A DNA stretch of 32,000 nucleotides, taken from the NCBI GenBank assembly GCA_963705105.1, contig CAVPIW010000006.1, positions 639,332 through 671,331 of the forward strand. Direction: 5' to 3'. The stretch is from an uncultured Nitrospiraceae bacterium (GTDB lineage Bacteria; Nitrospirota; Thermodesulfovibrionia; Thermodesulfovibrionales; Dissulfurispiraceae). Below, piece after piece: positions 995-29,526 of this stretch (positions are counted from its first letter, which is position 1; each line of letters opens with the position of its first letter). A program made the translations under genes and the position numbers. The notes under the pieces were generated by a model. That model did not search any database. It was given only the letters and a program-made list of their open reading frames with translations, and was not told where the DNA came from.

Positions 995-1591
995 ATGACT
1001 ATGAAAGAGTCTATAAAGAATGACAATGCGTTCCTGAGGGCGATCCTCGATGCCATTCCTTCACCCGTGCTTATCATGAATCGCAATCTGCGGATCATCG
1101 ATGCAAATCAGGCTGCCAAAGTCCTGTCACCTGAGAATCCCGTCATTCAGAGGAAACTCTGCGGGGACATGCTCTGTTGTTATTATGCCCTCACATCAGG
1201 CAAAGGCTGCGGGTCGACGGAGCACTGCAGGGAGTGTATTGTCAGAAGGACCGTCCGCAGCGCCGTGAAGGGTGAAAAGAGCACCCGCGAGAAGGGCCAG
1301 ATGGCGATATTAAGAAACGGTGCAACCCTCATACTTCATCTGCTTGTCACCGCCACTCCTTTCACAGATGGAAACAGGCGCCTCGCCCTCGTCATCCTCG
1401 AAGACATAACCGAGCTTGTAGAGCTCAGGAGCATCTTTCGCATCTGCGCGAGTTGTAAACGGATACGCCGCGACGACGAGTACTGGGAACAGATCGAGAC
1501 TTTTCTGAAAACACATCTGGACCTGCAGTTCAGCCACGGCATCTGCCCGGAGTGCACAAAAAACCTGTACCCGGATCTCGGTCTTCCGTAG
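995..1591 (+). CDS. PAS-like sensor protein with an internal Cys cluster and a C-terminal CxxC...HGICPEC zinc-ribbon-like tail
   Basis: ATG at 995 (a second at 1001) follows a 'GAGG' Shine-Dalgarno-like motif. The longer ORF from 893 lacks one. 'NAFLRAILDAIPSPVLIMNRNLRIIDANQAA' is a typical PAS N-terminus. Cys cluster: CGDMLCC...C...CRECI. Tail: ICASCKRIRRDDEYWEQIETFLKTHLDLQFSHGICPEC. Confidence 0.7.
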   Translation: MTMKESIKNDNAFLRAILDAIPSPVLIMNRNLRIIDANQAAKVLSPENPVIQRKLCGDMLCCYYALTSGKGCGSTEHCRECIVRRTVRSAVKGEKSTREKGQMAILRNGATLILHLLVTATPFTDGNRRLALVILEDITELVELRSIFRICASCKRIRRDDEYWEQIETFLKTHLDLQFSHGICPECTKNLYPDLGLP

Positions 1592-1633
1592 CGGGCAGCG
1601 GGTATCCTGAGCTTCATCCTCCCGAACAGGATG

Positions 1634-1649
1634 ACCGGGGAACCCCGGT
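1634..1649 (+). terminator. Perfect GC hairpin (ACCGGGG-AA-CCCCGGT) 43 nt after the PAS gene stop; possible terminator but no U tract
   Basis: 7-bp perfect stem read directly from the sequence. It is followed by AAAAGC rather than a T run, so function is uncertain. Confidence 0.25.
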
Positions 1650-1781
1650 AAAAGCGCAATTCTTGCATTGAGCGGCGCAATTTTTGCATCCTTTGTCGCA
1701 CCATGCCATTGTTTTTCAGTTCACGCCGCCCCTTCTATTCATGGCACAGGATTTGATATTTGCAAAGGCAACGTCCTATGA

Positions 1782-1833
1782 CTTGTCATTCCGGCTCGTC
1801 CGGAATCTTTCTGTGGGAAGGACTCCCGACAAG
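1782..1833. repeat. Nested stem-loop element: outer stem CTTGTC/GACAAG enclosing two hairpins
   Basis: Outer stem is 1782-1787 paired with 1828-1833. Hairpin 1 is ATTCCGG-ctcgt-CCGGAAT (1788-1806). Hairpin 2 is GGGA-aggac-TCCC (1815-1827). It resembles small palindromic intergenic elements. Confidence 0.4.
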
Positions 1834-1928
1834 CTGCAGTGATGGAGAATAGGTCATTTATTATGTTGAAATTATTAGTCGGCAGTCCGAAGATAATAAA
1901 GGATATAAAAGAATATAGAAGTTAAGGC

Positions 1929-2045
1929 GGTTCCCAAAACGGCCCGATAGATGATCTCCGGTAAGCCGGCGTTTCTTTGGGCGCTTTGCGGCTTGGCGTG
2001 AGACCGCAGTTCCCTGTCAATCGCCGATCAGGCCGAATTGGGAAC
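1929..2045. repeat. 117-bp element bounded by 19-nt imperfect inverted repeats (MITE-like or structured leader RNA)
   Basis: GGTTCCCAAAACGGCCCGAT (1929-1948) pairs with ATCAGGCCGAATTGGGAAC (2027-2045) at 16 of 19 positions. The interior holds CCGG-TAAG-CCGG (1958-1969). It also holds GCGCTTTGCGGCTTGGCGTGAGAC (1981-2004), a near copy of 14637-14662. Confidence 0.45.
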
Positions 2046-2151
2046 AATGCGGTCATCTCTGACACCGGCAGTGCCACCTAATTAATTATGCCTCACACCG
2101 ACATTGTCGCCGGCGCTGTTGCTTTACGAACCCATTTGAAAGGAGGCCGTA

Positions 2152-2676
2152 ATGAGAAGAACTGAAGACGGTGGATGGAATCCTTACCTTGCAGGCTCGC
2201 TCAACGGGGTGGTCCTCATCTTGTCCGCCTGGATCGCGGACAAATATGTCGGCACATCGACCACATTTGTGAAGACGGCGGGTATGATCGAAAAGCTCTT
2301 CAATCCCGAACGGGTGGCACAAATGGAATACTTCATCAAGGAAGTGCCGAAGATTGACTGGCAATGGATGTTTGTCATCGGCATTTTCATCGGGTCTTTC
2401 ATCTCATCAGTTACCTCGGGCTCGTTCCGTTTGAAGGCCGTCCCCGATATGTGGGAGCGTCGCTTCGGACCGGGCATTGCAGATCGCGGACTCGTGGCAT
2501 TCATCGGCGGCATCGTCGTGATCTATGGTGCACGCCTTGCCGATGGTTGACCGAGCGGACACGGGCTGAGCGGTTCGCTCCAGCTTGCAGTAAGCGGCTT
2601 CATCGCCCTCGCCGGGTTTTTCATCGGCGGCATGATAATGGCAAACCTGATCTACCGGGGAGGTGACAGCTCATGA
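2152..2676 (+). CDS. YeeE/YedE (sulfur-transport, PF04143-type) half-transporter; candidate selenoprotein with UGA 2548-2550 read as Sec
   Basis: Strong SD (AAAGGAGG) before ATG 2152. The ORF-track product ends '...GARLADG' at TGA. The same frame continues 'PSGHGLSGSLQLAVSGFIALAGFFIGGMIMANLIYRGGDSS' to TGA 2674-2676. This restores the family motif GARLADG-C-PSGHGLSG with Sec at the Cys position. Total is 174 codons versus 175 for the partner gene. The stop overlaps the partner start (ATGA). Confidence 0.7.
2565..2584 (+). promoter_or_regulatory. Candidate bacterial SECIS hairpin
   Basis: 5'-GCUGAGCG-GUU-CGCUC(C)AGC-3' gives 8 bp with one bulged C and a G/U-containing apical loop. The base starts 14 nt after the UGA and the loop lies about 25 nt from it. 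That is the range expected for bacterial SECIS elements. Confidence 0.5.
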
Positions 2677-3200
2677 CCACGCTTCTGTACGGCCTTGTCA
2701 CGGGCATCCTCTTCGGTTTCCTCCTCCAAAAGGCGCGGGTCCTGAGGTACGACAAACAGATCGGCGCCCTGCGGCTCATGGATATGACCATCGTCAAGTT
2801 CATGCTGAGCAGCATCCTTGTCGCCATGGTCGGCGTCTATCTGCTCAAGGACCTCGGCCTCGTCAAACTCAACCTTAAAACCACCGTCATTGGTGCCCAG
2901 GTTCTCGGGGGCATCATCTTCGGTCTCGGGTGGGGACTGCTCGGTTACTGCCCGGGGACACAGATAGGGGCGCTCGGGGAAGGGAGGCTGGACGCGGTAT
3001 GGGGAATCATCGGGTCGCTCGTCGGGGCGGCACTCTATGCCGAAACCTATCCTTTTCTAAAGAAGACGGTGCTTGCCTGGGGCAATTACGGCAAGATAAC
3101 GGTGCCTCAAACCCTCGGCGTCAACCACTGGTTCGTCATTATCCCCCTCGTCACTGGAGGTCTTCTGCTCTTCCGGTGGTTCGAGAAAAGGGGGCTGTAG
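2673..3200 (+). CDS. YeeE/YedE family half-transporter (Cys form, GYCPGT motif)
   Basis: Polytopic hydrophobic protein. 'GLGWGLLGYCPGTQIGALGEG' matches the family's second conserved Cys motif. Translationally coupled to the upstream half through the ATGA overlap. Confidence 0.85.
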   Translation: MTTLLYGLVTGILFGFLLQKARVLRYDKQIGALRLMDMTIVKFMLSSILVAMVGVYLLKDLGLVKLNLKTTVIGAQVLGGIIFGLGWGLLGYCPGTQIGALGEGRLDAVWGIIGSLVGAALYAETYPFLKKTVLAWGNYGKITVPQTLGVNHWFVIIPLVTGGLLLFRWFEKRGL

Positions 3201-3217
3201 TAAACCATCAGGAAAAC

Positions 3218-3249
3218 ATGGAGCGGCTGGATGGACCCAGCCGCTCCAT
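3218..3249. terminator. Bidirectional intrinsic-terminator-like hairpin between convergent genes
   Basis: Perfect 13-bp stem ATGGAGCGGCTGG / CCAGCCGCTCCAT with a 6-nt loop. On the minus strand it is followed by GTTTTCC. It lies between stop 3200 (+) and stop 3262 (-). Confidence 0.6.
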
Positions 3250-3261
3250 ACACGCCATCCC

Positions 3262-3657
3262 TTACTTCTTTTTGTGCTCGATCTCCTTTTCCGCCTCCTC
3301 TTCCATCTTCTTGAGCCTCGTGTAGTAATCGGGGAACTCCGCGAGGTGATCGATAGAGATCTCGAGGGCGCGGAACTTGTCAGTCGTATGCTCCTGCTCC
3401 ACCTTGATCCCCATGAGAAGCTGGTCCAGGTCGAAATCGGTCACCTTTCTCGCATCAGCCCTGCCCCCCCTGATGCCCTGCCGGAAGTCCCTGATGTCGA
3501 TCCCGTGGCGCTCCTTGATCGCCTTCCGGTACTCCTCGAATTTCGCATCCTGTCCCTTGACGACCGGTTTCGACGGTTTCGGCTGCTCCACAGCATAACC
3601 AGTGACGACAAAACAAAGCACAAGCATCAACGCAAACAAGATGATTCTTCCTTTCAT
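3262..3657 (-). CDS. Small exported protein with a 'VEQEHT...DHLAEFPDYY' motif (DUF5661-like, from memory)
   Basis: Start chosen at M10 of the track ORF (ATG 3657) because AAGGAGG lies 7 nt upstream. N-terminal signal-like segment MKGRIILFALMLVLCFVVTGYA. The conserved EHT/DHL/YY motif block is recalled from a domain-of-unknown-function family. Confidence 0.7.
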   Translation of the reverse strand: MKGRIILFALMLVLCFVVTGYAVEQPKPSKPVVKGQDAKFEEYRKAIKERHGIDIRDFRQGIRGGRADARKVTDFDLDQLLMGIKVEQEHTTDKFRALEISIDHLAEFPDYYTRLKKMEEEAEKEIEHKKK

Positions 3658-4687: not shown

Positions 4688-6064
4688 TCACGTGGACTGG
4701 CTGAGGGCGGCATAGACAATCAAAATCGCGACGACCATGACGTGGAGAAACGCGTAATTTCTCCGTGGAATCATGCCCTCGAAATCGCCTTTATGAAAAA
4801 GACGGAGGACATTGTGGCTTGCCGCCGCCCCGACAGCAAGGATAAGCAACGATAGGATGCCGATGAACCGTTCATCCACGACAAATCGCCACCGGGAAAG
4901 GTCCATCCCCGCCTGACTGCCGAGGGTCGGGAAAAATGAACCCGCTTCCGACAGGAAGTATGCGAGCCGGTAGACGAGCTCCCCAGTAAAGGTGAAGGGG
5001 ACGAGCACGGGGACCATCGGCGAAAAACGTCCGAAGACCTCGTCTTCCGTTACCGTGAACAGCCTTGCCCCGACCCGTATGAGACCGAGAAAAAAGAGGA
5101 AGCCAGCTCCGAGAAGCACGGTGAAAGCGACAAGGTCCGACTGATGAAAATAGGTTTTCAGCGGCACGAACCAGGCCTTTTCATAAATGAAACGGGCGAG
5201 CTGGGAACCCATGAGAAAGGGGATGATAAAAGAGCAGGTGAGGTAACGGCCCTTGTTGATCACCAGTTCCGCAAAGGGGTTCCGCAGGTTTATCCTCGGC
5301 GAATCGTAGGGGCACATCGGGACGCAGTGGCCGCAGACAAGGCAATCGAGGTTGTTCCGCACATTGACGGCACCGAGATAGACGGGGCAGCCGGCGCCGC
5401 CTGCCGTGCCCTTCCGGCAGGAAGCGGTTTTGCAGGTTTTGCAGACAGCGAGATCAGGCCTGAACTCCGTAATGGAGATGGTGGCGGCGGACCCTATGAT
5501 CCTGCCCATGGGGCAGACGTGGCGGCACCAGGCCTGTCCCTTGAAGAGGACCTCCATAAGTGTTGCGCCGGCGATGATCGCCACGAGCAGGATCGCCGTC
5601 CCGGACGGCGATTCCTTGAGGTTGAAGACGGATTCCGCCCAGAGAATGACAGCCAGGAAGAATGTAGACAGATAGACGCCGTTCTTCTGCAGGAACCGCG
5701 GTACGTCGGCGTTGAATCTCATCCCGAAACGGCGCAGGATGCGTCCGACACCGGGGAACGGGCAAAAGCCGCACCAAAGCCTCCCGGTGAAGAACCAGCT
5801 CAGTACGATGGTCGTCCACCAGACACCCCAGACCATGAAAAGGATCGCATTCCGGTCCGGGTCCTGGGGACCGAAGAACCCGACAAGGATGATGACGGTG
5901 AAAACGATGTCTCCGAAGGTCCGTACCGCCGCAAAATACCGGCGGTCTGCGAAAAACCTCTTCAACGGGGGAAAGGCTTCGAAAAGGTTTATGCGCGCCT
6001 GACGGTCGTCAGGGAGGACGATCCCCAGCGCCTGACGGAGGATTTTTCTCGCTGTCATGTACAC
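4688..6064 (-). CDS. Membrane-bound polyferredoxin (NapH/MauN-like 4Fe-4S protein) with a C-terminal multi-TM extension
   Basis: Membrane CxxCP motifs: WCGFCPFPG and WCRHVCPMG. Two ferredoxin-type clusters: CKTCKTASC...CP and CLVCGHCVPMCP. Hydrophobic segments sit on both sides. Last gene of the rsmI-ABC operon. Confidence 0.8.
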   Translation of the reverse strand: MYMTARKILRQALGIVLPDDRQARINLFEAFPPLKRFFADRRYFAAVRTFGDIVFTVIILVGFFGPQDPDRNAILFMVWGVWWTTIVLSWFFTGRLWCGFCPFPGVGRILRRFGMRFNADVPRFLQKNGVYLSTFFLAVILWAESVFNLKESPSGTAILLVAIIAGATLMEVLFKGQAWCRHVCPMGRIIGSAATISITEFRPDLAVCKTCKTASCRKGTAGGAGCPVYLGAVNVRNNLDCLVCGHCVPMCPYDSPRINLRNPFAELVINKGRYLTCSFIIPFLMGSQLARFIYEKAWFVPLKTYFHQSDLVAFTVLLGAGFLFFLGLIRVGARLFTVTEDEVFGRFSPMVPVLVPFTFTGELVYRLAYFLSEAGSFFPTLGSQAGMDLSRWRFVVDERFIGILSLLILAVGAAASHNVLRLFHKGDFEGMIPRRNYAFLHVMVVAILIVYAALSQST

Positions 6065-6069
6065 GCCTT

Positions 6070-6813
6070 CTATTCGCTGTAGTTCCTGATCAACCGCGAG
6101 CCGTAGAGAAAAAACGCTGCGGCATAGGCGACGAGAACGGCGAGGGAGACGAGGGCCTCCTCGTCGAGCGACGCCTTCCTGATGACGATATTCGTGTGGG
6201 TCAAAGGGAAAACGGTGATGAGCATCCCGATGGCGGCGGGCATGCGGTCGACGGGGAAGAAGGTCCCGCTGAAGAACGCCATGGGCAGGATGAAGAAGTT
6301 GGTATATGTCGCCGTGTCCTCGTGAGACTTGGAGACCATGCCCGTGATGACGCCGAGACTGGCGAAGAGGAAGCAGTTGAGCAGGAGGGTGCCGGCGAAA
6401 AGGGGCGTGAGAAAAAACCCGTCGACGGCGATGAATCCGACGGAGATGATGAGCGACGAGGCGAAGAGACCCTTCACCATGCCTGCCAGGACTTCACCGA
6501 TCATTATGGAGGAAGGGCTGATCGGCGCCTGGACGAAGACCTGGAAAGTCTTGAAGTAGATCCTGTTGAGGTTGAGGGCGCTCGCGACCCAGGTGTAAGA
6601 GTTGTTCATGGAGCTCATGGCCACGATGCCCGGAAGCAGGTACGTGAGGTAATCGACGCCCTGGACTGTGACGCCCCTGCCGAGGCCGAACCCGAAGGTG
6701 ATCAGGTAGATGATGGGGACGACCATGGCAGAGAAGAGGTATCCGATCTTGAGCAGTTTCCTCCGGAAAAGGAGCATCTCCCGGAGAAAGATGGGGTACC
6801 ATTTCATCATCAT
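6070..6813 (-). CDS. ABC-2 type transporter permease
   Basis: 247 aa with six predicted TM segments and typical ABC-2 permease organisation. ATGA overlap with the upstream ATPase gene. Confidence 0.85.
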   Translation of the reverse strand: MMMKWYPIFLREMLLFRRKLLKIGYLFSAMVVPIIYLITFGFGLGRGVTVQGVDYLTYLLPGIVAMSSMNNSYTWVASALNLNRIYFKTFQVFVQAPISPSSIMIGEVLAGMVKGLFASSLIISVGFIAVDGFFLTPLFAGTLLLNCFLFASLGVITGMVSKSHEDTATYTNFFILPMAFFSGTFFPVDRMPAAIGMLITVFPLTHTNIVIRKASLDEEALVSLAVLVAYAAAFFLYGSRLIRNYSE

Positions 6814-7643
6814 GCCATGCGCTCCCCGGTAAGCTTGACGAAGACGTCCTCGAGGTTGGATGCCCTGATGGTCACGCCGTTGCGCATCTCGGCTGCCAGC
6901 GCGTTGGCTTCCTCACGGGTCCTCCGGATATGCTGGATGAGTTTTCCCCCGGCGTCCACGTGCTCCACCACGTACTCTCCGACCATGGCCTTCAGGTTTG
7001 ACGGCGTGTCGAGGGCGACCAGGCGGCCCCTGGCAAGGATGCCGATCCTGTTGCAGAGGGCCTCGGCCTCCTCGATGTAGTGCGTGGTGATGACGACGGT
7101 CCGGCCCTCGATCCGCACCTTCCTGATATTGTCCCACATCTGCCGCCGTATCTGGGGATCGAGGCCGAGAGATGGTTCGTCGAGGAAGAGGACTGACGGC
7201 TCCGTCAGGAGCGCCCGGGCGAGGAGGAGCCGTCTCTGCATGCCGCCTGAAAATCCCGAGACGACGGAGTCCTGCCTGTCCGAGAGGCCGACTGTCTTTA
7301 TGGCCTCTTCAATCACCCGTCGCCTCTGCCGGACATCGTGGAGCATGGAGTAGATAAGTAGGTTCTCATAGGCCGTCAGCTCCCTGTCCAGGTTGTTCTC
7401 CTGGGGGACGACGGCGATGCGCCTTTTCACCGCAATGGGGTCCTGCCGGACGTCGAAGCCGTCGACCCTGCAGACACCGCTGTCTGCCCGGCTCAGCGTC
7501 GTCAGGACCTTGATCGTCGTCGTCTTGCCCGCGCCGTTCGGCCCCAGGAGGCCGAAGACCTCGCCCTTCTCGATGGTGAAAGTGACGCCGTCGAGGGCGG
7601 TGATTGCGCCGTATCTTTTCGTGAGCCCCTGCACCTCAACCAT
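6810..7643 (-). CDS. ABC transporter ATP-binding protein
   Basis: Walker A GPNGAGKTT, signature SGGMQRRL, Walker B LLFLDEPSLGLD, H-loop TTHYIEE. Confidence 0.92.
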   Translation of the reverse strand: MVEVQGLTKRYGAITALDGVTFTIEKGEVFGLLGPNGAGKTTTIKVLTTLSRADSGVCRVDGFDVRQDPIAVKRRIAVVPQENNLDRELTAYENLLIYSMLHDVRQRRRVIEEAIKTVGLSDRQDSVVSGFSGGMQRRLLLARALLTEPSVLFLDEPSLGLDPQIRRQMWDNIRKVRIEGRTVVITTHYIEEAEALCNRIGILARGRLVALDTPSNLKAMVGEYVVEHVDAGGKLIQHIRRTREEANALAAEMRNGVTIRASNLEDVFVKLTGERMA

Positions 7644-7651
7644 TATATGCC

Positions 7652-8473
7652 CTACTTCCCCAGGCTCCGGTCATAGAGTTCCCGTGCGCTCAGATCGTAT
7701 GCTTCAGCGACGATCCTCGACGCCTCCTTCCTGCCCTTCCCTCTTTTCATGAGTTCGCCGACCTCGCGGAGCGCCTCGTCGACACTCGGCGTTTCCCGGC
7801 CCCGGCCTTCCACGATGATCACGTATTCCCCCACCGTCTTTCTGCCCTTCACAAATTCAACGATTTCGGTCAGTGTGCCCCGCATCGCCTCTTCGTGGAT
7901 TTTCGTGATTTCCCTGATCAGGGCGGCTTTGCGCGGACCGAAGATGGCCGCCATGTCGTCAAGCGTTTCCGTGACACGGTGGGGCGCCTCGTAGAAGACG
8001 AGGGTCCTGTCCTCGATGGCGAGCGACTTCAGCACCTTCTGTCTCTGCGCCTGTCTGGCCGGCAGGAAACCGGCGAAGGTGAACGTGTCCGTCGGGAGGC
8101 CCGCGATGGACAGGGCGGCGATTGCAGCCGAGGGGCCGGGAATGGAGACAACGGGCACTCCCTCTTCGACAGCCCTCTTTATAAGCACGGAGCCGGGATC
8201 GGAAATGCCCGGCGTCCCCGCATCCGATATGAGGGCGACGGACAACCCCTCCTTCAACCTCATGATGATCGACTCGGACCTGGTCTTCTCTTTTTCGGAC
8301 CAGTAGCTGATGAGCGGTTTCGCGATGCCGTAGTGCTGCAGGAGCTTCCGGGAATGGCGCGTGTCCTCGGCGGCGATGAGATCCACCTCGCCCAGGATTC
8401 TGACAGCCCTCAGGGTGATGTCCTCGAGATTGCCGATGGGAGTGGCGACGACGTAGAGGGTACCGACGCTCAT
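7652..8473 (-). CDS. rsmI: 16S rRNA (cytidine1402-2'-O)-methyltransferase
   Basis: N-terminal 'LYVVATPIGNLEDITLRAVRIL...LIAAEDTRHSRKLL' and 'ISDAGTPGISDPG' are hallmark RsmI (tetrapyrrole-methylase fold) motifs. Confidence 0.9.
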   Translation of the reverse strand: MSVGTLYVVATPIGNLEDITLRAVRILGEVDLIAAEDTRHSRKLLQHYGIAKPLISYWSEKEKTRSESIIMRLKEGLSVALISDAGTPGISDPGSVLIKRAVEEGVPVVSIPGPSAAIAALSIAGLPTDTFTFAGFLPARQAQRQKVLKSLAIEDRTLVFYEAPHRVTETLDDMAAIFGPRKAALIREITKIHEEAMRGTLTEIVEFVKGRKTVGEYVIIVEGRGRETPSVDEALREVGELMKRGKGRKEASRIVAEAYDLSARELYDRSLGK

Positions 8474-8537
8474 CGGCGCCCTCTGTCGTTGCTCACATGA
8501 TGACCCGCCATTTTGACCCGCCGCAGGAGCGGCGAAC

Positions 8538-9014
8538 TTACGACTTCTTCATGAAGCTGTCACGGAACGCCGCAAGCCAGCGGATGTGGCTCTTTTCCTC
8601 GTTGATGATCTCGTCGATGATCTCCTTTTCCTTCACGGCCTCACGGATGCCGTAATAATAGAGGAGCGATTCCTTCTCGAAGCCGATGGCGAATCTTATC
8701 ACCTCTCCGATGTCCGTCGTCGTCTCCATCGATGTCAGGGCCTTGTTGCTGCCGATGAAGAACTTCGACTCCACCATCGCCCTCATGTATTGCGACACCT
8801 CTTCCCAGCCGTCGGGCTCAGTGTCGCCGACGAGATCCCTGAGATCGGCGAAGGTCTTTTCGTGAACGACCTCCTTGTGGGCCAGATCGGTAAAGAAGGC
8901 GCTCAAACGCTCGTTGTCTTTGAATCTCTGCGCCATGGCGGAATAGAACTGGTGACCCAGTCTCTCCGTCTGGACGGCCTGCTCGATCACCTCTCTAATG
9001 GAATATTTCTCCAT
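8538..9014 (-). CDS. Ferritin-like / rubrerythrin-family diiron protein (no rubredoxin domain)
   Basis: Start taken at MEKYS (ATG 9014), which is preceded by GGAGG. Two E...ExxH pairs (QTERLG...KEVVHE and GFEKES...EEKSHI) fit a four-helix-bundle diiron site. Confidence 0.72.
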   Translation of the reverse strand: MEKYSIREVIEQAVQTERLGHQFYSAMAQRFKDNERLSAFFTDLAHKEVVHEKTFADLRDLVGDTEPDGWEEVSQYMRAMVESKFFIGSNKALTSMETTTDIGEVIRFAIGFEKESLLYYYGIREAVKEKEIIDEIINEEKSHIRWLAAFRDSFMKKS

Positions 9015-18432: not shown

Positions 18433-20745
18433 TTGTTGAAACATGGATGGCAAGAAAAACTCTATGAGACTTTTTCAGGGATCTCAACCTGGTCCCGGCG
18501 TATGCTCGTGGGCGCCCTATCGGTGGTTCGGGGAATCCATAGAATCCGTTTAGGCAAACTGCTTTGGCTCGTTTACCCCCTCATGTGCACAATAGTCATG
18601 ACGTCCGCTCTCGTTGCAGCCGGATTTCATTACATCTGTTTTGATCGAACCAACCTGCCTGACATAGAACCGTTCGCCCGGTTTGACTTTCCTGCGATCG
18701 GCTGCGTCTATGATGCCGATGGCCGGCCGCTCATTGAGGTGGCAAGAGAGTACCGGCGGATCACTCAGTATGACGACCTGCCGCCCATTGTTCGTAATGC
18801 CATCATCGCCACTGAGGACAAGAACTTCTTCTCACACAGTGGAGTTGACTATTCCACAATTCCTCGCGTCTTAAGCAAGGTGCGGATAGGCGCCTTGGTG
18901 TCCCACCTTACACGATCGGCGGGGAAAGAGGAGGTTACCAGTGGCGGCATCTTCCCGCAAGGCGGATCGACAATCACGCAACAGCTCGTGCGAGGTCACT
19001 TCCTTAAAAAGCTAACGGCTCAGGAAAACAGCGCACCGCTCCTGCACGGAGCACTTCTGCTCCGCGCACTGTCTTACGTGATCGGCCCACGAAGCGTCAA
19101 CAAGCTGTTTCGGAAGCTGGAGGAGATGAGACTATCGTTGTGGGTCGAGGATGAGATGCAGAAGCGTTTCGGTTCTAAACGCCGGGCAAAGGAAGAAATT
19201 CTGGCACGATATGCCAGCTTTGTTTACATGGGCAACGGTCAGTACGGAATTGCGAGAGCGGCTGAATACTACCTTGGTCGGCCTATCAACACGTTCACCG
19301 TGGATGATGCTGACAAGGCAGCGCTGCTGGCAGGCATCGCGAAGTCGCCTCGTTTCTATGCGCCCGGCGCTAAAGAAACCGCGAGAATCTTGCGCCGAAG
19401 AAATCAAATCCTGGCTCTTATGGCAGTCAACGGTTTTATCTCTCCGGACAGGGTGAGAGAGGCTGAGCAACGCCCGATTCAGGTGGTCGCGCCGCACAGG
19501 GACAAAAGGCCTCAGGCGGCGGCGGTCGTTGAAAGTGTCCTGCAGGAGTTAAAAGCCCGCAGCGCCGACGTCGGCGTTGAAGACCTTCTGCAGGGACGTA
19601 TCCATGTTTACTCGACAGTGGACGCCCGTGTGCAGCAAATTATGAATGAGGCGATGGAGCGCGGCCTCGAGCTTTATGAGAAACGACACCCGAGTTCCAA
19701 GGGGCTAATCCAGGGAGCTGTCATCGTGCTGCGGAACGGCGATGCGAGCATCCTCGCCGAGACAGGAGGTCGTCAGTTTTACAAGGGCCGCTCCACCTCA
19801 TACGGCGACTTCAACCGCGTCACGCAGTCCCTGCGACAATCCGGATCCGCAATGAAGCCCATTGTCTACCTCGCTGCTTTTCAGCAGGGAACATTTACCC
19901 TTGAGTCTATGGTTCCCGACGAACCGATCGGTGTTCCGGATAGAGGGGGAAAAAGTACGAAATGGGTCTCAAACTACGATGGCAAATTCAAGGGCGTGAT
20001 CACACTCCGGGAGGCGCTTGCAGAATCCAGAAATACCGTTACGATTTGGGTTGCAGAGCAAATCGGCATTGACAGCGTCCTGCGGACGTCTTGGAGGCTG
20101 GGGATCCAGACGCCGTTGCACCCATACGCCTCGACTGCGTTGGGCGCCTCGGAAGTGAATTTACTGGAGCTGGCCAATGCATACCGAGCCATGGCATCGG
20201 GCATCCTCATCCAGCCGTATGTAATCCGGAAAATCGTCCGCGATCTGGGCGAGGTAGGGGCTGATAAAGAGGGCAAGCTGTCGCCGGTCGAGGTCCACGA
20301 CGACGCTCTTTCTCTCATTCAGGAGGGCCTGCGCGGTGTCGTGCGAATTCCCACCGGTACGGCTCATGCACTTGACTCCAGAGGTTTCCCGATCGCCGTT
20401 ATGGGAAAGACAGGGACGACAAATGATTTCAGGGATGCGCTCTTCATAGGCTCGACGTACGGCCGCGAAGGAATCACTATAGCGGTCCGCATAGGCTTTG
20501 ACGACAACCGTTCCCTCGGGCCGGAAGAAACCGGCGGCAGGGTAGCTCTTCCGGTGTTCAAGGAAATCATGCTCAGAGTATACCGAGAAAGGCTTGCAGG
20601 GCCTGTGCCGGAGTTTCCTGCTCAAATGGAACGGAATATTAACGCTTACCTTAAAGGCCATTCGGCCGGAACGGCAGCGGTGACAGACACTTCTCTTGCT
20701 GCGATGTCTGAATTTCGGGTCGTCTCTGCCGATCAGGAGAGATGA
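18433..20745 (+). CDS. PBP1A-family bifunctional penicillin-binding protein (GT51 transglycosylase + transpeptidase)
   Basis: GT51 motifs: EDKNFFSHSGVD, GGSTITQQL, RKLEEM. Transpeptidase motifs: SGSAMKP (SxxK), SRN, KTGTT. The track start is TTG 18433. An in-frame ATG at 18502 is an alternative start. Confidence 0.9.
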   Translation: MLKHGWQEKLYETFSGISTWSRRMLVGALSVVRGIHRIRLGKLLWLVYPLMCTIVMTSALVAAGFHYICFDRTNLPDIEPFARFDFPAIGCVYDADGRPLIEVAREYRRITQYDDLPPIVRNAIIATEDKNFFSHSGVDYSTIPRVLSKVRIGALVSHLTRSAGKEEVTSGGIFPQGGSTITQQLVRGHFLKKLTAQENSAPLLHGALLLRALSYVIGPRSVNKLFRKLEEMRLSLWVEDEMQKRFGSKRRAKEEILARYASFVYMGNGQYGIARAAEYYLGRPINTFTVDDADKAALLAGIAKSPRFYAPGAKETARILRRRNQILALMAVNGFISPDRVREAEQRPIQVVAPHRDKRPQAAAVVESVLQELKARSADVGVEDLLQGRIHVYSTVDARVQQIMNEAMERGLELYEKRHPSSKGLIQGAVIVLRNGDASILAETGGRQFYKGRSTSYGDFNRVTQSLRQSGSAMKPIVYLAAFQQGTFTLESMVPDEPIGVPDRGGKSTKWVSNYDGKFKGVITLREALAESRNTVTIWVAEQIGIDSVLRTSWRLGIQTPLHPYASTALGASEVNLLELANAYRAMASGILIQPYVIRKIVRDLGEVGADKEGKLSPVEVHDDALSLIQEGLRGVVRIPTGTAHALDSRGFPIAVMGKTGTTNDFRDALFIGSTYGREGITIAVRIGFDDNRSLGPEETGGRVALPVFKEIMLRVYRERLAGPVPEFPAQMERNINAYLKGHSAGTAAVTDTSLAAMSEFRVVSADQER

Positions 20746-20778: not shown

Positions 20779-23700
20779 TTGCCTTCCAGTTGCATGGATA
20801 ACAAAGTGAGGAGACCCCTGAGTTATAGAAAACCATTGGCTTTCAGAATGAAGGAGACTTCAAGGTTGAAGGTGAGAGACAAGACCATGCTCGGAAGCCT
20901 ACCTCTATTGCGTGCGGGCTTCCGCGAAGCAGACCTGGCAGAAAAGTGCGCCGTCTGCGAGCCTCCGTTGAGATCGGAGTTGTTCAGCAGCGATCAGATG
21001 GAGCAGCATGGCAAGACCCTGGCGGGCTTGCACAAATTGAGCCCCCTCTATCCTCCTGATCAGCTCCTGGCCAGACTGGCCGAGAATGAAGGCATCCTGA
21101 CCGGAACCCGTCGCCTGCTGACGGAGGCGGTCGCGACGGGTCGTCGGATTACGCCGGCAGGTGACTGGTTGCTCGATAACTTCTATCTGATCGAAGAACA
21201 GATACGCACGGCCAGGAGACACCTGCCGAAGGGCTACAGCCGGGAGCTTCCCCGCTTGCGGGACGGCCTTTCGGCCGGACTTCCGCGCGTGTATGACATC
21301 GCTTTGGAGACGATCTCACACAGCGATGGGCGCATAGATCCGCAAAGCCTCAGCAAATTCGTTGCTGCCTACCAGACAGTCACCGTCCTGAAGTTGGGAG
21401 AACTGTGGGCCATCCCTATTATGCTGCGGCTCGCGTTGATCGAGAATCTCCGGCGCGTTGGGGCACGGATCGCTGCCGACAGGCTCGACAGAAACCAGGC
21501 TGATTATTGGGCGGACAGGATTACCGAGATCGCGGGGAAGGACCCGAAGAGTCTGATATTGGTCATGGCGGACATGGCGCGGTCGGACCCGCCTCTGAAG
21601 AGCGCGTTCGTTGCGGAATTTGCCCGCCGGCTTCAGGGCCGGGGCCCCGCACTGGCAATGCCGCTCACATGGATTGAGCAGCGACTCCTGGAGTGCAGTC
21701 TCACGATCGAACATCTGGTGCAGTCCGAGAACCAGCAACAGGCGGCTGATCAGGTCTCGATGAGCAACAGCATCGGCAGCCTCCGCTTCCTCGGCATGAT
21801 GGACTGGCGCGAGTTCGTCGAGACGATGAGCATTGTCGAGCAGACCCTGCGTGATGATACGGGCGGTACATACGGCAGAATGGACTTCTCCACCCGTGAC
21901 CGTTACCGCCACGTAGTGGAGAAAATGGCAAAGAGCGGCCGTCTGTCGGAAGACGAGGTGGCAGCCGAAGCGGTGCGGCTCGCGCATGAAAGCGCGGCCG
22001 GCAAAGACGGCGGTCAGGGTGGTGATGATCGCGCCGCCCATGTGGGCTATTATCTGATCGACAAGGGATTGCCGCGGCTTGAAGAGCTGGCGCAGTTGCG
22101 ATTGTCCGTCTCCGGGGCCCTTCGGAAAGTGGGTTCCCGGTTTCCCCTGCTTCTCTATCTGGGCGCGATCACGTTCATGACGGCGATTTTTACCGGTGGG
22201 TTGCTGGCGAAGGCGTATGCTGACGGCTTGCCTCTTTGGCTGCTCGTGACGACCGGTATCCTCTCAGCGTTGTGTGCAAGCCAGCTCGCTCTTGCAGTGG
22301 TGAACTGGCTTGCGACATTGCTGGTCATTCCGCTGCCGCTGCCGCGAATGGACTTTTCCAAAGGCATCCCGCCTGAGTCCCGGACCCTCACGATTGTCCC
22401 GACTATGCTGACAAACGCCCAGGGCATCGAGGACCTGATCGAAGGTCTGGAAGTCAGGTTCCTTGCAAATCGCGACGACAACCTGCACTTCGGCCTGCTG
22501 ACCGATTTTCAGGATGCGGCAGAGGAAACACTGCCGGAGGACGAACCGCTGTTACTGCTGGCCCGGCAGAGAATCGAGGGACTGAATGAAAAGTACGGGA
22601 ACACAAAAGGCGACAGGTTCTTCCTTTTTCACCGCCCGCGCAGGTGGAATGCCCGGGACCGGGTCTGGATGGGTTATGAGCGCAAGCGGGGCAAGCTGGC
22701 GGCATTGAATGCCTTTTTGCGCGGCAGGAAGGATGACGGAACAGATGGTCTCTCCGGAAATCCCTTCTCGCTTGTCGTCGGTAATACGGAAATCCTGTCC
22801 GACGTAAAGTACGTGATCACCCTTGATACGGATACTCAGCTGCCGCGCGATGCGGCGCGGCAATTTGTGGGAACCATGGCGCACCCGCTGAACCGTGCGC
22901 ATTACGACGAAGGCAGGCAGCGCGTCGTTGCCGGGTACGGCATCCTTCAGCCGCGTGTCGCGGTGAGCCTGCCGGGCACAAACCGCTCTCGGTATGCGCG
23001 CCTGTACGGGAGTGATCCCGGCATCGACCCTTACACGCGCGCCGTCTCGGATGTTTACCAGGACGTCTTCGGTGAAGGCTCCTTTACCGGCAAGGGAATC
23101 TATGACGTCGACGCATTCGAGAGGACCCTGGGCGGACGTTTTCCCGATAACCGAATCCTCAGCCACGATCTTATCGAAGGGTGTTACGCCCGTGCAGGGC
23201 TGTTGAGTGACGTCATGGTCTACGAGGAGTATCCATCCCGCTACAGCGCGGACGTGAGCCGCCGGCACCGTTGGATTCGCGGGGATTGGCAGCTTCTGCG
23301 CTGGCTGCTGCCGGCAGTTCCCGGCCCTGAAGGGCTGCGCCAAAAAAACCCTCTCTCGCTATTGTCCCGATGGAAGCTCTTCGACAATCTTCGGCGCAGT
23401 CTCGCGCCATCGGCATTGATACTACTCTTGCTGCTGGGCTGGGCGGTCATGTCATCGCCGTGGTTCTGGACCTTGTCGGTGATGGGGATCATTTTTATTC
23501 CTTCTTTGATAACCTCTGTCCTGGACTTGCTCAAGAAGCCGGACGATATACATTTTGCGCAGCATCTCCCTGACGTCGGACGCTCCACCGCCGGGCGTCT
23601 TGTTCAGGTTGTCTTTACGCTTGCCTGTCTCCCCTACGAGGCGTTTTTCAGTCTCGATGCGATTGTGCGGACGACCTGGAGAATGCTGGTTGCACGCAAG

Positions 23701-26700
23701 CGGCTCCTCGAATGGAGTCCTTCGGGCGACGCGGATAAAAATACCCGCAGCTCCCGTATGGGTGGTCTCGCCGGTGTCTGCCGGACGATGTGGTTCGCTC
23801 CCCTTCTTGCCTCGGCAGCGATAGTCTGTCTGGCCCTTTCCAACCCCGCCGCCCTGGGAGCGGCTGTGCCCATACTGTTGCTCTGGTTTGCCTCACCCGT
23901 TATCGCCTGGCGGATCAGCATGCCTCTTTCCCGCAAGGAAGCGGGGCTCATGCCCGACCAGACCGCTTTTCTCCAAAAGCTTTCCCGAAAGACCTGGGCC
24001 TTCTTCGAGACCTTCGTCGGCCCCGAAGAGCATTGGCTGCCGCCTGATAACTTTCAGGAGCACCCTGCCCCTGCCGTTGCTCACCGCACGTCTCCCACGA
24101 ACATGGGACTTTCGCTGCTGGCGAATTTGTCCGCCTATGACTTCGGCTACATTTCGATGGGGCAGCTCATCGAACGCACGACGCGTGCCCTCTCCACGAT
24201 GGAGGCACTGGAGCGCTATGAGGGCCATTTTTATAACTGGTACGACACGCAGTCTCTGAATCCCCTGCCTCCCCGGTACGTTTCGACGGTGGACAGCGGG
24301 AACCTTGCGGGCCATCTGCTGACGCTGCGGCAGGGGCTGCTTGAGCTTCCCGACCGGACGGTCCTGGGTCCACGGGTGTTTGAGGGACTCCGCGACACGC
24401 TATGGGCGCTCCTGGAGGCCGTTGCCGAAGAGCGTCTTGGAGGCGCCGTTTTTGCCGTGCTCGGTCAACTGGAGACGGATCTGGAAGAGGCGTGCAGCGT
24501 GCCACCGGCTGAGCCGGCGGCGGCGCGGCTCCGCCTCGAACAACTCGCACGGCAGGCTGAGGAGGCCTTTTCCAGTATAGTTATGCGGGGTGGCGGCCAG
24601 GAGAATCAGGCCGGATGGTGGGCGAGCGCCTTTGCCGGGCAATGCCGGGACGCACTCGGGGAACTGACGCTTCTTGCTCCTTCGTCAGCTCCCGGCATTG
24701 ACGGGATACCGACGCTCCGCGCACTGGCGGACATGGGAAACGGTCCCGCCGCTGAGAGAATCAGGGCTATCGAAAAGCTCGTGCTGCATTCGGGCGAACT
24801 CAGCCGCATGCAGTATGACTTCCTGTTGGACCGGTCGAGTCATTTGCTGGCCATCGGGTACAACGTCGACGACCGCAGGCGGGACGCGAGTTACTACGAC
24901 CTGCTGGCTTCGGAAGCGAGGCTCTGCACTTTCGTTGCCATTGCTCAGGGGCAAGTACCGCAGGAGAGCTGGTTCGCCCTGGGCCGCCTGCTCACGAACA
25001 TCGGGGGAGAGCCGATCCTCGTTTCCTGGAGCGGTTCGATGTTCGAATACCTCATGCCGCTCCTGGTCATGCCGGCGTATGAGCGGACGCTGCTCGACGA
25101 GACCTGCAAGGCGGCGGTGGCCAGGCAGATCGAGTATGGGAGGAAGCGCGGGGTACCCTGGGGCATTTCGGAATCCGGCTACAACACAATCGACGCTCAT
25201 CTCAACTACCAGTACCGCGCCTTCGGCGTTCCCGGACTGGGACTCAAACGCGGGCTCGCCGACGATCTGGTCATTGCGCCCTATGCCTCGGCGCTCGCGC
25301 TGATGGTGGCGCCCGAGGAGGCGTGCCTGAATATGCAGCGGCTCGCTGCGGAAGGACGTGAGGGCATATTCGGCTTCTATGAAGCAATCGATTACACTCC
25401 TTCACGTTTGCCGCACAGACAATCGAGTGTCGTGATCCGGTCATTTATGGCTCATCACATGGGCATGAGCTTTCTCTCCCTGGCCTATCTGCTTCTGGAC
25501 CGTCCGATGCAGAAGCGATTCGAGTCGGACCCCTTGTTTCAGGCAACGACGCTTCTGCTTCAGGAGCGTGTACCGAGGGCCGCGGGATTCCATCCGCAGA
25601 CCGCCGACCTCTCCGTATCACAGACGGCTGCCACCGCAGAGGAGACCTCCGTGCGCTTTTTCAACAGCCCGGACACGCCCTTTCCCCAGGTGCAGTTGCT
25701 GTCGAACGGCAGGTACCACGTGATGATCACGAACGCCGGCGGCGGGTACAGCCGATGGAAGGACATCGCAATCACGCGCTGGCGTGAAGACAGTACCTGC
25801 GACGACTGGGGCACGTTTTGTTATATCCGTGAGGTGGCGAGCGGTGAGTTCTGGTCAGCGGCATATCAGCCGGCGCTCAAAGGGTCGAGGCATTATGAGG
25901 CGATTTTCTCGGAAGGCCGGGCCGAGTTTCGCCGCCGGGACCACGACTTCGAGACACACACCGAGATCGCTGTTTCTCCCGAGGATGATATTGAGCTGCG
26001 CCGGATTACGATCACCAACCGCGGCCGGACACGCAGGGAGATCGACGTCACGAGTTACGCCGAGGTCGTCCTTGCTTCACCTGCCGCAGACATGCTGCAT
26101 CCTGCGTTCAGCAATCTTTTTGTTCAGACGGAGATTATCGGTCACAGGCAGGCGATCCTCTGTACCCGCCGCCCCCGCTCCGTCGAGGAGCACTCGCCTT
26201 GGATGTTTCATCTGATGGCCGTCCACGGGACGGAGACGGGCGAGGTTTCCTATGAGACCGACCGCCTGCGGTTCATCGGTCGCGGAAACACCGTTGCCGA
26301 CCCGCAGGCCCTGAGCGGCCCGGCCGCGTCAGAAAAAACGGGCGGGTCTGCCGCGCTTTCGGGCAGTGAGGGCTCAGTGCTCGATCCGATTGTCGCCATA
26401 CGGTATCGCATAGTCCTTGATCCGGAAAAATCGGCAACGATAAACATTGTCACCGGTATCGGTGAAACCCGCGACATCTGTATGGGCCTCGTGGAAAAAT
26501 ACCAGGACCGGTATCTTGCAGACCGCGTCTTTGAGCTCGCATGGACACACAGCCAGGTGCTCCTGCGGCAGATCAACGCCACGGAGTCCGATGCGCAGCT
26601 CTATGGACGACTTGCCGGCGCCGTGATCTACGCCAATTCTTCGCTGCGCGCCGACCCGGGCGTTCTCATCACAAACCGCCGCGGGCAATCAGGTCTGTGG

Positions 26701-29526
26701 GGTTACGCCATTTCCGGCGACCTCCCGATCGTGCTGTTGCAGATCGGAGACCCGGCCAACATCGACCTGGTGCGCCAGCTCGTCCAGGCCCACGCATACT
26801 GGCGTCTCAAAGGACTGGAAGTGGACCTCGTGATCTGGAACGAGGATCACGCCGGCTACCGGCAGGTCCTGCAGGAGCAGATCATGGGACTCATTGCCGC
26901 AGGCGTCGAGGCGAACGTGATGGATCGACCGGGCGGCATCTTCGTGAGACCTGCAGACCAGATATCGGGCGAGGACCGCATCCTGTTTCAGACGGTCAGC
27001 CGCGCCATCATCACCGACACACTCGGCCCGCTCGCGGACCAGATCAATCGCCGCAGTATTATGCCGCTTGCAGTACCGCGCCTTGCCCCGACCGGGAGCC
27101 CCCGCACAGAATCTGCGACTGCCGGGGCGATGACCCGCAGCGATCTGCTGTTCTTCAACGGACTCGGTGGATTCACCCCTGACGGCCACGAGTACATCAT
27201 CACGACGGCCCGCGAACAGGTGACGCCGGCGCCCTGGGTGAATGTGATCGCCAACGCGCACTTCGGAACGGTTGTTTCGGAAAGCGGAGGCGCGTACACC
27301 TGGAGCGAGAATGCCCATGAGTTCCGCCTCACCCCCTGGTGCAACGATCCGGTCAGCGATGCTGGCGGAGAAGCTTTTTACCTCCGCGATGAAGAGAGCG
27401 GCCTCTTCTGGTCCCCTTCGCCGCTGCCGGGCCGGGGGGCGATGCATTACGTCAGCCGCCATGGATTCGGCTACAGTGTCTTTGAACATACGGAGGACGG
27501 CATAAGATCAGAGATGTGGATTTACGTGGCGATGGATGCGTCGGTCAAGTTGACGGTATTGAAGGTAAGAAACGAATCGGGCCGGTCCCGCCGGCTCTCG
27601 GCCACCGGGTATGTGGAATTGGTGCTGGGAGATCTGCGGCAGAAAACGGCAATGCATGTGAGCACCGAAATCGACCCCAAAACAGGCGCGCTTTTCTGCC
27701 GGAACCCGTACAACACGGAGTTTGCCGGGCGGACCGCCTTCTTCGACACCGATGAGACGACCCGCACCGTGAGCGGCGACCGGACGGAGTTCCTTGGCCG
27801 TAACGGCACGCTCCGGAGCCCGGAGGCGATGACCGGCGCGTGGCTTTCAGGCAGGGTGGGGGCCGCCCTGGACCCCTGCGCCGCTATCCAGGTCCCCTTC
27901 GATCTTGCCGACGGGCAGGAGCGGGAGATCATCTTCAGGCTTGGCGTGGGACGGGATTCATTTGAGGCCGGCCAACTGGTACACCGCTTCCGCGGATCTG
28001 CCGCCGCGCGCGGGGCGCTCGAAAAGGTCTGGCAGCACTGGAATCACACCCTCGGAGCGGTGCAGGTTGAAACACCGGACCAGTCCGTCAATGTACTGGC
28101 CAACGGGTGGCTCTTATATCAAACTCTGGCCTGTCGTCTTTGGGCGCGGAGCGGATACTACCAGTCCGGGGGCGCCTTCGGCTTCCGCGACCAGTTGCAG
28201 GACGTGATGGCGCTTATCCACTCCGAGCCCTCGCTCGTGCGCGAACACCTCCTGCTCTGCGCAGCCCGTCAGTTCAGGGAGGGAGACGTCCAGCACTGGT
28301 GGCATCCCCCTTCAGGACGGGGCGTGCGCACACACTGTTCGGACGACCTTCTCTGGTTGCCCCTGGCTGTGTGCCGTTATGTGCTGACGACCGGAGACAC
28401 GGGAGTGCTGGATGAAACCGTCCGCTTCATCGAGGGCCGGCCGGTAAACAAGGACGAGGACTCGTATTACGATCTTCCCCACGCGTCCGAAGAGACGGCG
28501 AGTTTGTACGATCACTGTGTGCGGGCCATTCTGGGGGGCCTCAGCCGCGGCGAACACGGATTGCCCCTCATCGGCTCGGGTGATTGGAACGACGGCATGA
28601 ACATGGTGGGCGCTCACGGCAGGGGTGAGAGCGTTTGGCTGGCATTCTTCCTTTATAAAGTGCTCATGGAGTTCTGCGGGATTGCCCGTCTGCACGGTGA
28701 TCCGCCCTTTGCCGAACGCTGCCGGGAGGAAGCTGCTCAACTGCTCAGAAGTATCGAAGAGCATGGCTGGGACGGCGAGTGGTACCGGCGCGCCTACTTT
28801 GATGACGGCTCCCCCCTGGGTTCGGCAGGCAATCCCGAATGCCGGATCGACTCCATAGCGCAGAGCTGGTCCGTTCTCTCCGGCGCCGGGGATGCCGGAC
28901 GCTCGCAGACGGCAATGGAAGCGGTGGACAGGCGCCTTGTTCGACGGGACCATGGCCTTATCCAGCTCCTCGATCCGCCCTTCGACACATCGGATCTGAA
29001 TCCCGGCTATATAAAGGGATACGTCCCGGGTGTACGGGAGAACGGGGGGCAATACACGCATGCGGCGATCTGGACGGTGATGGCCTTTGCCGCGTTGGGC
29101 GACCGCAGTCGCGCATGGGAACTGCTGGCAATGATCAACCCGGTGAACCATGGGAGGACCAGGGAGGAAACAGCGACGTATAAAGTTGAACCCTACGTCG
29201 TCGCTGCCGACGTCTATGCGGTCTCGCCGCATACCGGCCGCGGCGGATGGACATGGTACACGGGATCGGCAGGCTGGATGTACAGGCTTATCCTTGAATC
29301 ACTCCTTGGGCTGAGGCGCGAAGGAGACAGGCTACGTTTCACGCCCTGTCTGCCCGGGGACTGGGAAGCGTTCAGTGTGCATTACCGGTACGGGGAGACC
29401 GTCTATCACATCAACGTTCTTCAACGGGGCGGCGGCAGTGCAGCGGGTGTGACCGTCGATGGCGCTAATACCCTGATAGGCACGTTCGTCCGGCAACTGG
29501 CTGCACGCCTCAGGTTGACCGGCTGA
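20779..29526 (+). CDS. ndvB: Cyclic beta-1,2-glucan synthase (NdvB/ChvB/Cgs family: GT84 + central domain + GH94 phosphorylase-like domain)
   Basis: 2,915-aa ORF. GT84-type motifs: [11 protein letters not shown] and [10 protein letters not shown], within a multi-TM region. GH94-type C-terminal motifs: [16 protein letters not shown]...[26 protein letters not shown]...[17 protein letters not shown]. The true start is uncertain: TTG 20779, or ATG 20794, 20848 or 20887, the last with the best SD-like GGTGAG. Confidence 0.9.

Follow-up and report, generated by a model that had tools for sequence, protein, structure and literature searches.

The window analysed here, a stretch of 32,000 nucleotides from an uncultured Nitrospiraceae bacterium (assembly GCA_963705105.1, contig CAVPIW010000006.1), contains on its forward strand two overlapping genes for a split transporter of the YeeE/YedE type, the first of which is interrupted by an in-frame UGA codon. 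The first gene (2152-2676) is preceded by a Shine-Dalgarno sequence, AGGAGG, at 2141-2146, which can be read directly 5 nt ahead of the ATG. As the first-pass annotation of the window had described, an open reading frame (ORF) of 132 aa with the terminal residues ...YGARLADG spans 2152-2550 and ends at the TGA at 2548-2550, and the same frame continues past this codon as PSGHGLSGSLQLAVSGFIALAGFFIGGMIMANLIYRGGDSS, up to a second TGA at 2674-2676, which is the true stop. The extended gene has 174 sense codons, with the UGA as codon 133 (U133), and is thereby close in length to its 175-aa partner; the 41 codons that follow the UGA (2551-2673) complete the PSGHGLSG loop and add the final transmembrane helix. 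The two genes are coupled by an ATGA stop/start overlap at 2673-2676, also read directly from the sequence, at which the partner ORF (2673-3200, same strand) begins.

Both proteins match the Pfam family PF04143 (Sulf_transp), which has a gathering cut-off of 27 bits. The first, with Cys placed at codon 133, scores 86.4 bits over profile positions 174-310, while the partner, which is also matched by PF20398, scores 54 bits over positions 18-149. Since the two matches cover complementary parts of the profile, the genes represent the C-terminal and then the N-terminal half of a YeeE/YedE-type protein, and they correspond to the PmpA-like and the PmpB-like half, respectively.

A homology search of a collection of 5.8 billion proteins gave 6100 relatives of the first protein, the best 120 of which were inspected. 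All but one of these are 169-179 aa long and have the motif G[AV]R[LM]A[DGE]G-C-P[ST]GHG at the aligned place, so that the UGA falls exactly opposite the conserved Cys in 119/119 full-length homologues. The Cys-containing block that the first-pass annotation had given, GARLADGCPSGHGLSG, is therefore correct. The lone exception, P0001, is 98% identical to the window protein and is a 132-aa call that ends at the same point. At the level of DNA, the 80 best loci in species-representative genomes comprise 71 with TGA at the codon in question, followed by PSGHGLSG, and 9 with TGC or TGT. A DNA-level set of 160 related loci, which includes a metagenome scan seeded with a Cys form that also yielded TGA forms, has TGA in 96 loci and TGC or TGT in 64. 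The TGA carriers belong to the Desulfobacterota (Desulfobacterales, Syntrophales, Desulfuromonadales, Geobacter/Trichlorobacter), the Nitrospirota and the Syntrophorhabdaceae, with one metagenome-assembled genome (MAG) of the Negativicutes, and they include a cultured organism, Malonomonas rubra DSM 5091, which has two copies of the selenocysteine (Sec) type (L048, 6001-6525, and L057, 5983-6513). Pairs of Cys and Sec orthologues, for which the first-pass annotation had proposed to search by alignment, do exist; a single 90%-identity cluster of Nitrospirota (L053 and relatives) holds both P0125, which ends at the TGA, and P0126, which is full-length with Cys. On a neighbour-joining tree of 140 distinct sequences, at least 14 changes between Sec and Cys are required.

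The TGA is one base apart from TGC and TGT, and close Cys forms such as P0126 exist, which raises the question of a sequencing or assembly miscall. The identical TGA is, however, present in four near-identical assemblies from four different runs (L001-L003 and L164), as well as in more than 90 other species, and it goes together with codon constraints in a downstream hairpin that are specific to the Sec forms (see below). The agreement of the four independent assemblies excludes a miscall for any practical purpose, and we assign it a negligible probability.

The same comparison bears on the possibility that translation really ends at this TGA, the locus being either a decaying pseudogene or the gene of a 132-aa truncated protein with a merely residual likeness downstream. 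Such an interpretation would agree with the gene callers, which give a 132-aa product here and similar ones in relatives (P0001, P0122, and the 133- and 135-aa proteins of M. rubra), and with the fact that the Sec machinery is not seen within the window. A decaying tail would, on the other hand, gather stops and frameshifts, and nothing of this kind is found. Past the TGA, the frame remains open for 37-42 codons in every complete locus of this type, and 91 distinct Sec-type tails contain zero in-frame stops over the first 36 codons. The minor-allele fractions in these tails at codon positions 1, 2 and 3 are 0.148, 0.035 and 0.417, respectively; the concentration of the variability at third positions points to purifying selection on the protein. 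The ATGA overlap with the partner recurs in 62 of the 72 complete Sec-type loci. The degraded downstream frame in relatives that the first-pass annotation had named as grounds for rejecting its proposal was thus looked for, and the frame is instead open and conserved in all 91 TGA-type sequences. That 96 of 160 independent loci, spread over several phyla, share this TGA together with an open and conserved downstream frame is far beyond chance. In addition, a 132-aa product would be devoid of the essential Cys-loop and of the last helix. We therefore consider a genuine stop extremely improbable.

Behind the UGA lies a hairpin resembling a bacterial Sec insertion sequence (SECIS), at 2565-2584 on the forward strand, beginning 14 nt past the UGA as had been proposed. 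In the window, G2565-G2572 pairs with C2576-C2584, G2573, U2574 and U2575 form the loop, and one C is bulged at 2580/2581. With the columns numbered from the U of the UGA, positions 18-25 pair with 29-37 around a G-U-U loop, with one bulged pyrimidine. Standard pairs occupy 94.2% of the pair cells in 82 distinct Sec-type sequences; as a control, shifting the 3' partners by one to three columns in the same set lowers the value to 24-47%. In the Cys-type sequences (n = 48), only 67.2% of the pair cells can pair. Compensatory changes are found at two of the pairs, G-C in 53 and A-U in 18 sequences for one, and C-G in 61 and U-A in 17 for the other, and none of 500 shuffles reached the covariation observed. 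The most telling evidence comes from an amino-acid control in which only sequences with the identical peptide GLSGSLQL are compared: all 7 fixed pairs are kept in 65/66 Sec forms but in only 5/17 Cys forms. Three codons (AGC, GGT/GGG at the glycine codon, and TCG) are fixed in the Sec forms, while they vary freely in the Cys forms. Hence, the hairpin proposed behind the UGA is conserved with compensatory changes in the TGA forms and degraded in Cys forms encoding the same peptide. Lineages that have the residues GSV or GLA instead form alternative hairpins at the same place. Several Cys forms, L007 and L019 among them, still have the full hairpin, which suggests very recent Sec-to-Cys conversions. 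The G of the loop (G2573, column 26) is invariant across the 82 Sec-type sequences, and a conserved apical-loop guanosine is what bacterial SECIS recognition uses (figure legend, PMC2398784).

On the basis of these comparisons, the in-frame UGA at 2548-2550 is almost certainly read as Sec, which replaces a functionally essential cysteine. The decoding would be directed by the SECIS hairpin contained in the G-L-S-G-S-L-Q-L codons, to which SelB and Sec-tRNA(Sec) presumably bind, and translation would then run on for 41 codons and end in the ATGA overlap, which would couple the synthesis of the second subunit.

We have also considered that the UGA is passed without Sec, through near-cognate insertion of Trp or Cys, through a reassigned code, or through read-through stimulated by the hairpin. 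Downstream hairpins can in general stimulate read-through, and the insertion of Sec at this codon is deduced from sequence. A reassigned code is contradicted by the window itself, in which TGA is the ordinary stop of 10 of the 18 genes, including the end of the first transporter gene, so that the genetic code is standard. Near-cognate insertion does not fit the aligned residue, which is only Cys and never Trp or Gly in the 119 homologues. As for stimulated read-through, the distance of the hairpin from the UGA is that expected for a bacterial SECIS, its apical loop has the invariant G (cf. PMC2398784), and the carriers come from selenoprotein-rich anaerobic lineages (PMC13188914). Passage of the UGA without Sec is therefore very unlikely. 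No other candidate for TGA read-through was found in the window except on the antisense strand of known genes.

The position of the Sec in the transporter can be assigned from the alignment to the YeeE protein of Spirochaeta thermophila (6LEO, 8J4C), in which U133 falls on C293 (GAVTAGG-C-NIGH) and Cys93 of the partner (TGC 2949-2951) on C91, while the position of C22 is occupied by Leu. In the crystal structure of YeeE, C293 lies at the periplasmic indentation and touches the bound thiosulfate at position I (PMC7449682), the path is lined by C293, C91 and C22 at steps of ~7 Å (PMC7449682, PMC11073785), and the C91A and C293A variants are inactive (PMC7449682, PMC11073785). The suggestion of the first-pass annotation that the Sec stands in the proposed conduction path is borne out by this alignment with an essential residue. 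A Sec in the partner half was also sought and not found: the partner accompanies the first gene in 79/79 loci, and wherever its motif is readable, the codon is one for Cys and never TGA. With U133 on C293 and the partner Cys on C91, the conduction path would consist of Se on the outside, followed by S.

Two related systems suggest how such halves may work together. PmpA corresponds by alignment to the C-terminal and PmpB to the N-terminal half of YeeE, the former with the cysteine equivalent to C293 and the latter with that equivalent to C91, and the two are proposed to form a heterodimer (PMC11582611). The homologous pair YedE1E2 imports zero-valent sulfur in a process that requires both cysteines and for which a persulfide relay has been proposed (PMC10812762). 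By analogy, the two half-size subunits encoded in the window would form a heterodimeric transporter like PmpA/PmpB and YedE1/YedE2. The Sec would take the place of the outward-facing "first cysteine" (C293), while the partner would keep the "second cysteine" as Cys, and the selenolate would act as the nucleophile or ligand of the entry site, from which the substrate would pass to the Cys of the partner. Import of a reduced or sulfane sulfur species (thiosulfate, polysulfide or zero-valent sulfur) is the most likely function of the complex.

The gene neighbourhood was compared in the 79 loci, and the partner half turned out to be the sole universally conserved neighbour. Neither DsrE, rhodanese nor sel genes recur near the transporter pair. 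In 11 of the loci (L017, L018, L027, L033, L034, L035, L044, L056, L062, L075 and L082), all of the Sec type and mostly from MAGs of Syntrophorhabdaceae or similar to Syntrophus, a flavoprotein of 474-494 aa is encoded directly 3' of the transporter pair on the same strand, ~640-990 nt past the Sec codon. It resembles the CoA-disulfide reductase (CoADR)/NSR enzymes, with a score of 428 bits to TIGR03385, which is below the cut-off, and with the active-site Cys motif SYGACSLPYY. Enzymes of this kind reduce cytoplasmic polysulfide and thiosulfate, and they are co-induced with yeeE in Thermotoga (PMC9431562). The CoADR-like flavoprotein may serve in the cytoplasm to accept or reduce the sulfur species that is brought in, and its presence, together with the chemistry of its family, leads us to favour thiosulfate or sulfane sulfur as the imported substrate and the selenolate as the nucleophile at the entry site. 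In one of these loci, the long-read MAG L062, the CoADR-like gene (7144-8567) is split into five short ORFs; this breakage is probably due to frameshift errors of the assembly rather than to decay.

A selenolate is deprotonated at physiological pH. It would consequently be unable to donate the S-H...S hydrogen bond that has been proposed for the thiosulfate relay. The use of Sec would imply instead that the conserved residues of YeeE/YedE proteins are nucleophiles that form transient covalent Se-S/S-S adducts, i.e., a relay of the persulfide type, and the Sec at C293 of YeeE can in this sense be regarded as a natural experiment that sets a hydrogen-bond relay against a covalent chalcogen relay. 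We put this forward tentatively and with more doubt than confidence, together with the idea that Se is the preferred atom at the outward "first cysteine" site in this subfamily, where Sec predominates among the nearest relatives and has been exchanged with Cys at least 14 times; alternatively, the subfamily may carry Se species. According to two reviews (PMC13188914, PMC9312934), prokaryotes have no known Se transporter that is specific and of high affinity; a subfamily that moves Se species would, if the latter alternative is true, be part of the missing prokaryotic route of selenium uptake.

A related scenario is that Sec is indeed inserted but that the UGA is mainly regulatory, the selenium supply setting the passage at codon 133 and, via the ATGA, the level of the partner. 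Production of the transporter would then be restricted to conditions with available selenium, for instance if selenium rather than sulfur is what it handles. The position of the ATGA coupling downstream of the UGA in the 62 of 72 loci would suit such a mechanism, as would the link of the distant family members YedE/FdhT to selenium metabolism and the vacancy for a prokaryotic Se transporter noted in the same reviews. Against it, the conserved neighbours include neither sel genes nor others related to selenium, and the scores to the YedE selenium models are far under their cut-offs. In addition, the Cys and Sec forms interchange freely, with the 14 or more switches mentioned above, which argues for an equivalent catalytic role of the two residues and not for a dedicated switch. 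We consider a mainly regulatory UGA unlikely, although less so than the passage of the codon without Sec.

Taking the decoding and the transport function together, we regard as highly probable that the locus is a two-gene operon of a heterodimeric YeeE/YedE transporter, the first subunit of which is a selenoprotein. The family membership, the Sec/Cys pairing, the selected open frame, the covarying hairpin and the alignment with C293 and C91 are observed; the SelB-dependent insertion, the heterodimer, the substrate and the chemical role of Se are inferred. A number of results weigh against this explanation and have to be set beside them. When 2548-2595 is folded alone, its stability is like that of shuffled sequence (z = -0.39), and the minimum free energy structure of this segment is a different fold and not the hairpin; the search against Rfam gave no match at the gathering score in the window and, for 2500-2660, noise alone at E<10. 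The evidence for the hairpin is accordingly comparative in nature. None of selA, selB, selC and selD, and no tRNA genes, were found within the 32-kb window, so the Sec competence of the genome is deduced from its relatives, which are members of the lineages richest in selenoproteins (PMC13188914). Selenium in the members of the family is itself predicted from their sequences. With regard to the function, the TsuA models NF041049 and NF052577 give 31-50 bits against cut-offs of 400-645, the YedE/FdhT models TIGR04112 and NF033796 give 35.5 against 200 and 22-29 against 350 bits, respectively, and no TusA/YeeD-like partner is found among the conserved neighbours in the 79 loci.

The surroundings of the two genes were scanned for signals of transcription. 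No promoter-like sites were detected in 1500-3400, and the one terminator-like hairpin in this region, at 1788-1806, is within chance expectation. This hairpin lies in a non-coding gap of 560 bp (1592-2151) upstream of the transporter operon, which contains no sigma-70-like promoter and no Rfam element. On the other side, between the partner gene and a convergent DUF5661 gene, there is a 13-bp perfect inverted repeat at 3218-3249 (AT GGAGCGGCTGG ... CCAGCCGCTCC AT), which has no T run and for that reason was passed over by the consensus terminator scan of 1500-3400. It is probably a bidirectional terminator hairpin that marks the end of the two-gene unit.

Farther away in the window, 4688-6064 to 6070-7643 on the reverse strand includes a polytopic protein of 458 aa whose 4Fe-4S motifs resemble those of NapH/MauN and which adjoins an ABC-2 exporter pair, a tetrapyrrole methylase and a rubrerythrin. 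On the forward strand, the gene of a class A penicillin-binding protein (18433-20745) is found directly ahead of a 2915-aa ORF (20779-29526) that combines GT2, glucoamylase-like and GH94 domains in the architecture of a cyclic beta-1,2-glucan synthase.

A family of Sec-containing YeeE/YedE proteins with the motif GUxSG has already been catalogued (PMC13188914, PMC9312934; supplement of PMC5029168). The 2022 review lists it as "YeeE/YedE family protein, pfam04143, WP_012471001.1" (PMC9312934), both reviews credit Zhang & Gladyshev 2008 and Peng et al. 2016 (PMC13188914, PMC9312934), and the supplement of the latter counts 5 genes in 5 organisms (PMC5029168). YeeE is not named in the main texts of PMC2398784 and PMC5029168, and it occupies a single line in the supplement of PMC5029168. 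Compared by motif and Pfam family, the window gene, with G-U-P-S-G and PF04143, fits the catalogued family. It follows that the gene is a mis-called further member of a known selenoprotein family and not a discovery, and that current knowledge is extended rather than overturned.

The extent of the mis-calling is considerable. The window gene itself is shortened by gene callers to 132 aa (P0122; NCBI/ENA/Logan), the two copies of M. rubra are deposited as "hypothetical protein" of 133 and 135 aa (SHJ82880.1, SHJ60846.1), and a homology search seeded with the Trichlorobacter orthologue returned the Sec forms only as truncations of 131 aa, versions of full length with an X at the Sec codon being absent from the protein collection. 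Dozens of orthologues are in this way deposited as truncated or "hypothetical" proteins of 131-135 aa, where they should be selenoproteins of 172-176 aa. M. rubra DSM 5091, with its two Sec-type copies, would be a convenient organism for experimental confirmation.

It is useful to compare the window pair with the systems to which it is related. With the catalogued GUxSG family it shares the Pfam family, the single Sec and the motif. The catalogue entry gives no structural position, split architecture or SECIS description, all of which are provided by the present analysis. The family was thought to be rare, with 5 genes in as many genomes in 2016; here, the Sec form predominates in the nearest relatives at species level (71/80), with carriers in the Desulfobacterota, Nitrospirota, Syntrophorhabdaceae and some Negativicutes. 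The additions made here are hence the breadth of the Sec form, a SECIS with a control by Cys forms, the assignment of the Sec to C293 in the PmpA-like half, and the extent of the truncated annotation.

PmpA/PmpB of Serratia and YedE1/YedE2 of Cupriavidus pinatubonensis are likewise encoded by adjacent half-size genes with one conserved Cys site each, and the Leu at the position of C22 in the window pair is consistent with this arrangement. Their subunits have ~130-140 aa and four helices, while the window proteins have 174 and 175 aa; the window pair differs further in that its partner half matches DUF6691 weakly, at 34.6 bits, and in that the equivalent of C293 is Sec. With YeeE/TsuA of S. 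thermophila and E. coli (6LEO, 8J4C), the pair has the fold family and the two central Cys loops in common, but TsuA consists of one polypeptide of ~330 aa, has C22 as a third Cys and strictly requires a TusA-like protein, YeeD/TsuB, whereas the window protein is split and has Leu at C22. Finally, bacterial selenoprotein genes that depend on a SECIS, fdhF for example, resemble the window gene in having an in-frame UGA at a catalytic Cys position and, just past it, an intragenic hairpin whose apical loop contains a G and whose stem has a bulged pyrimidine. The window gene is distinguished from them by its product, which is a subunit of a polytopic membrane transporter and not a soluble oxidoreductase.

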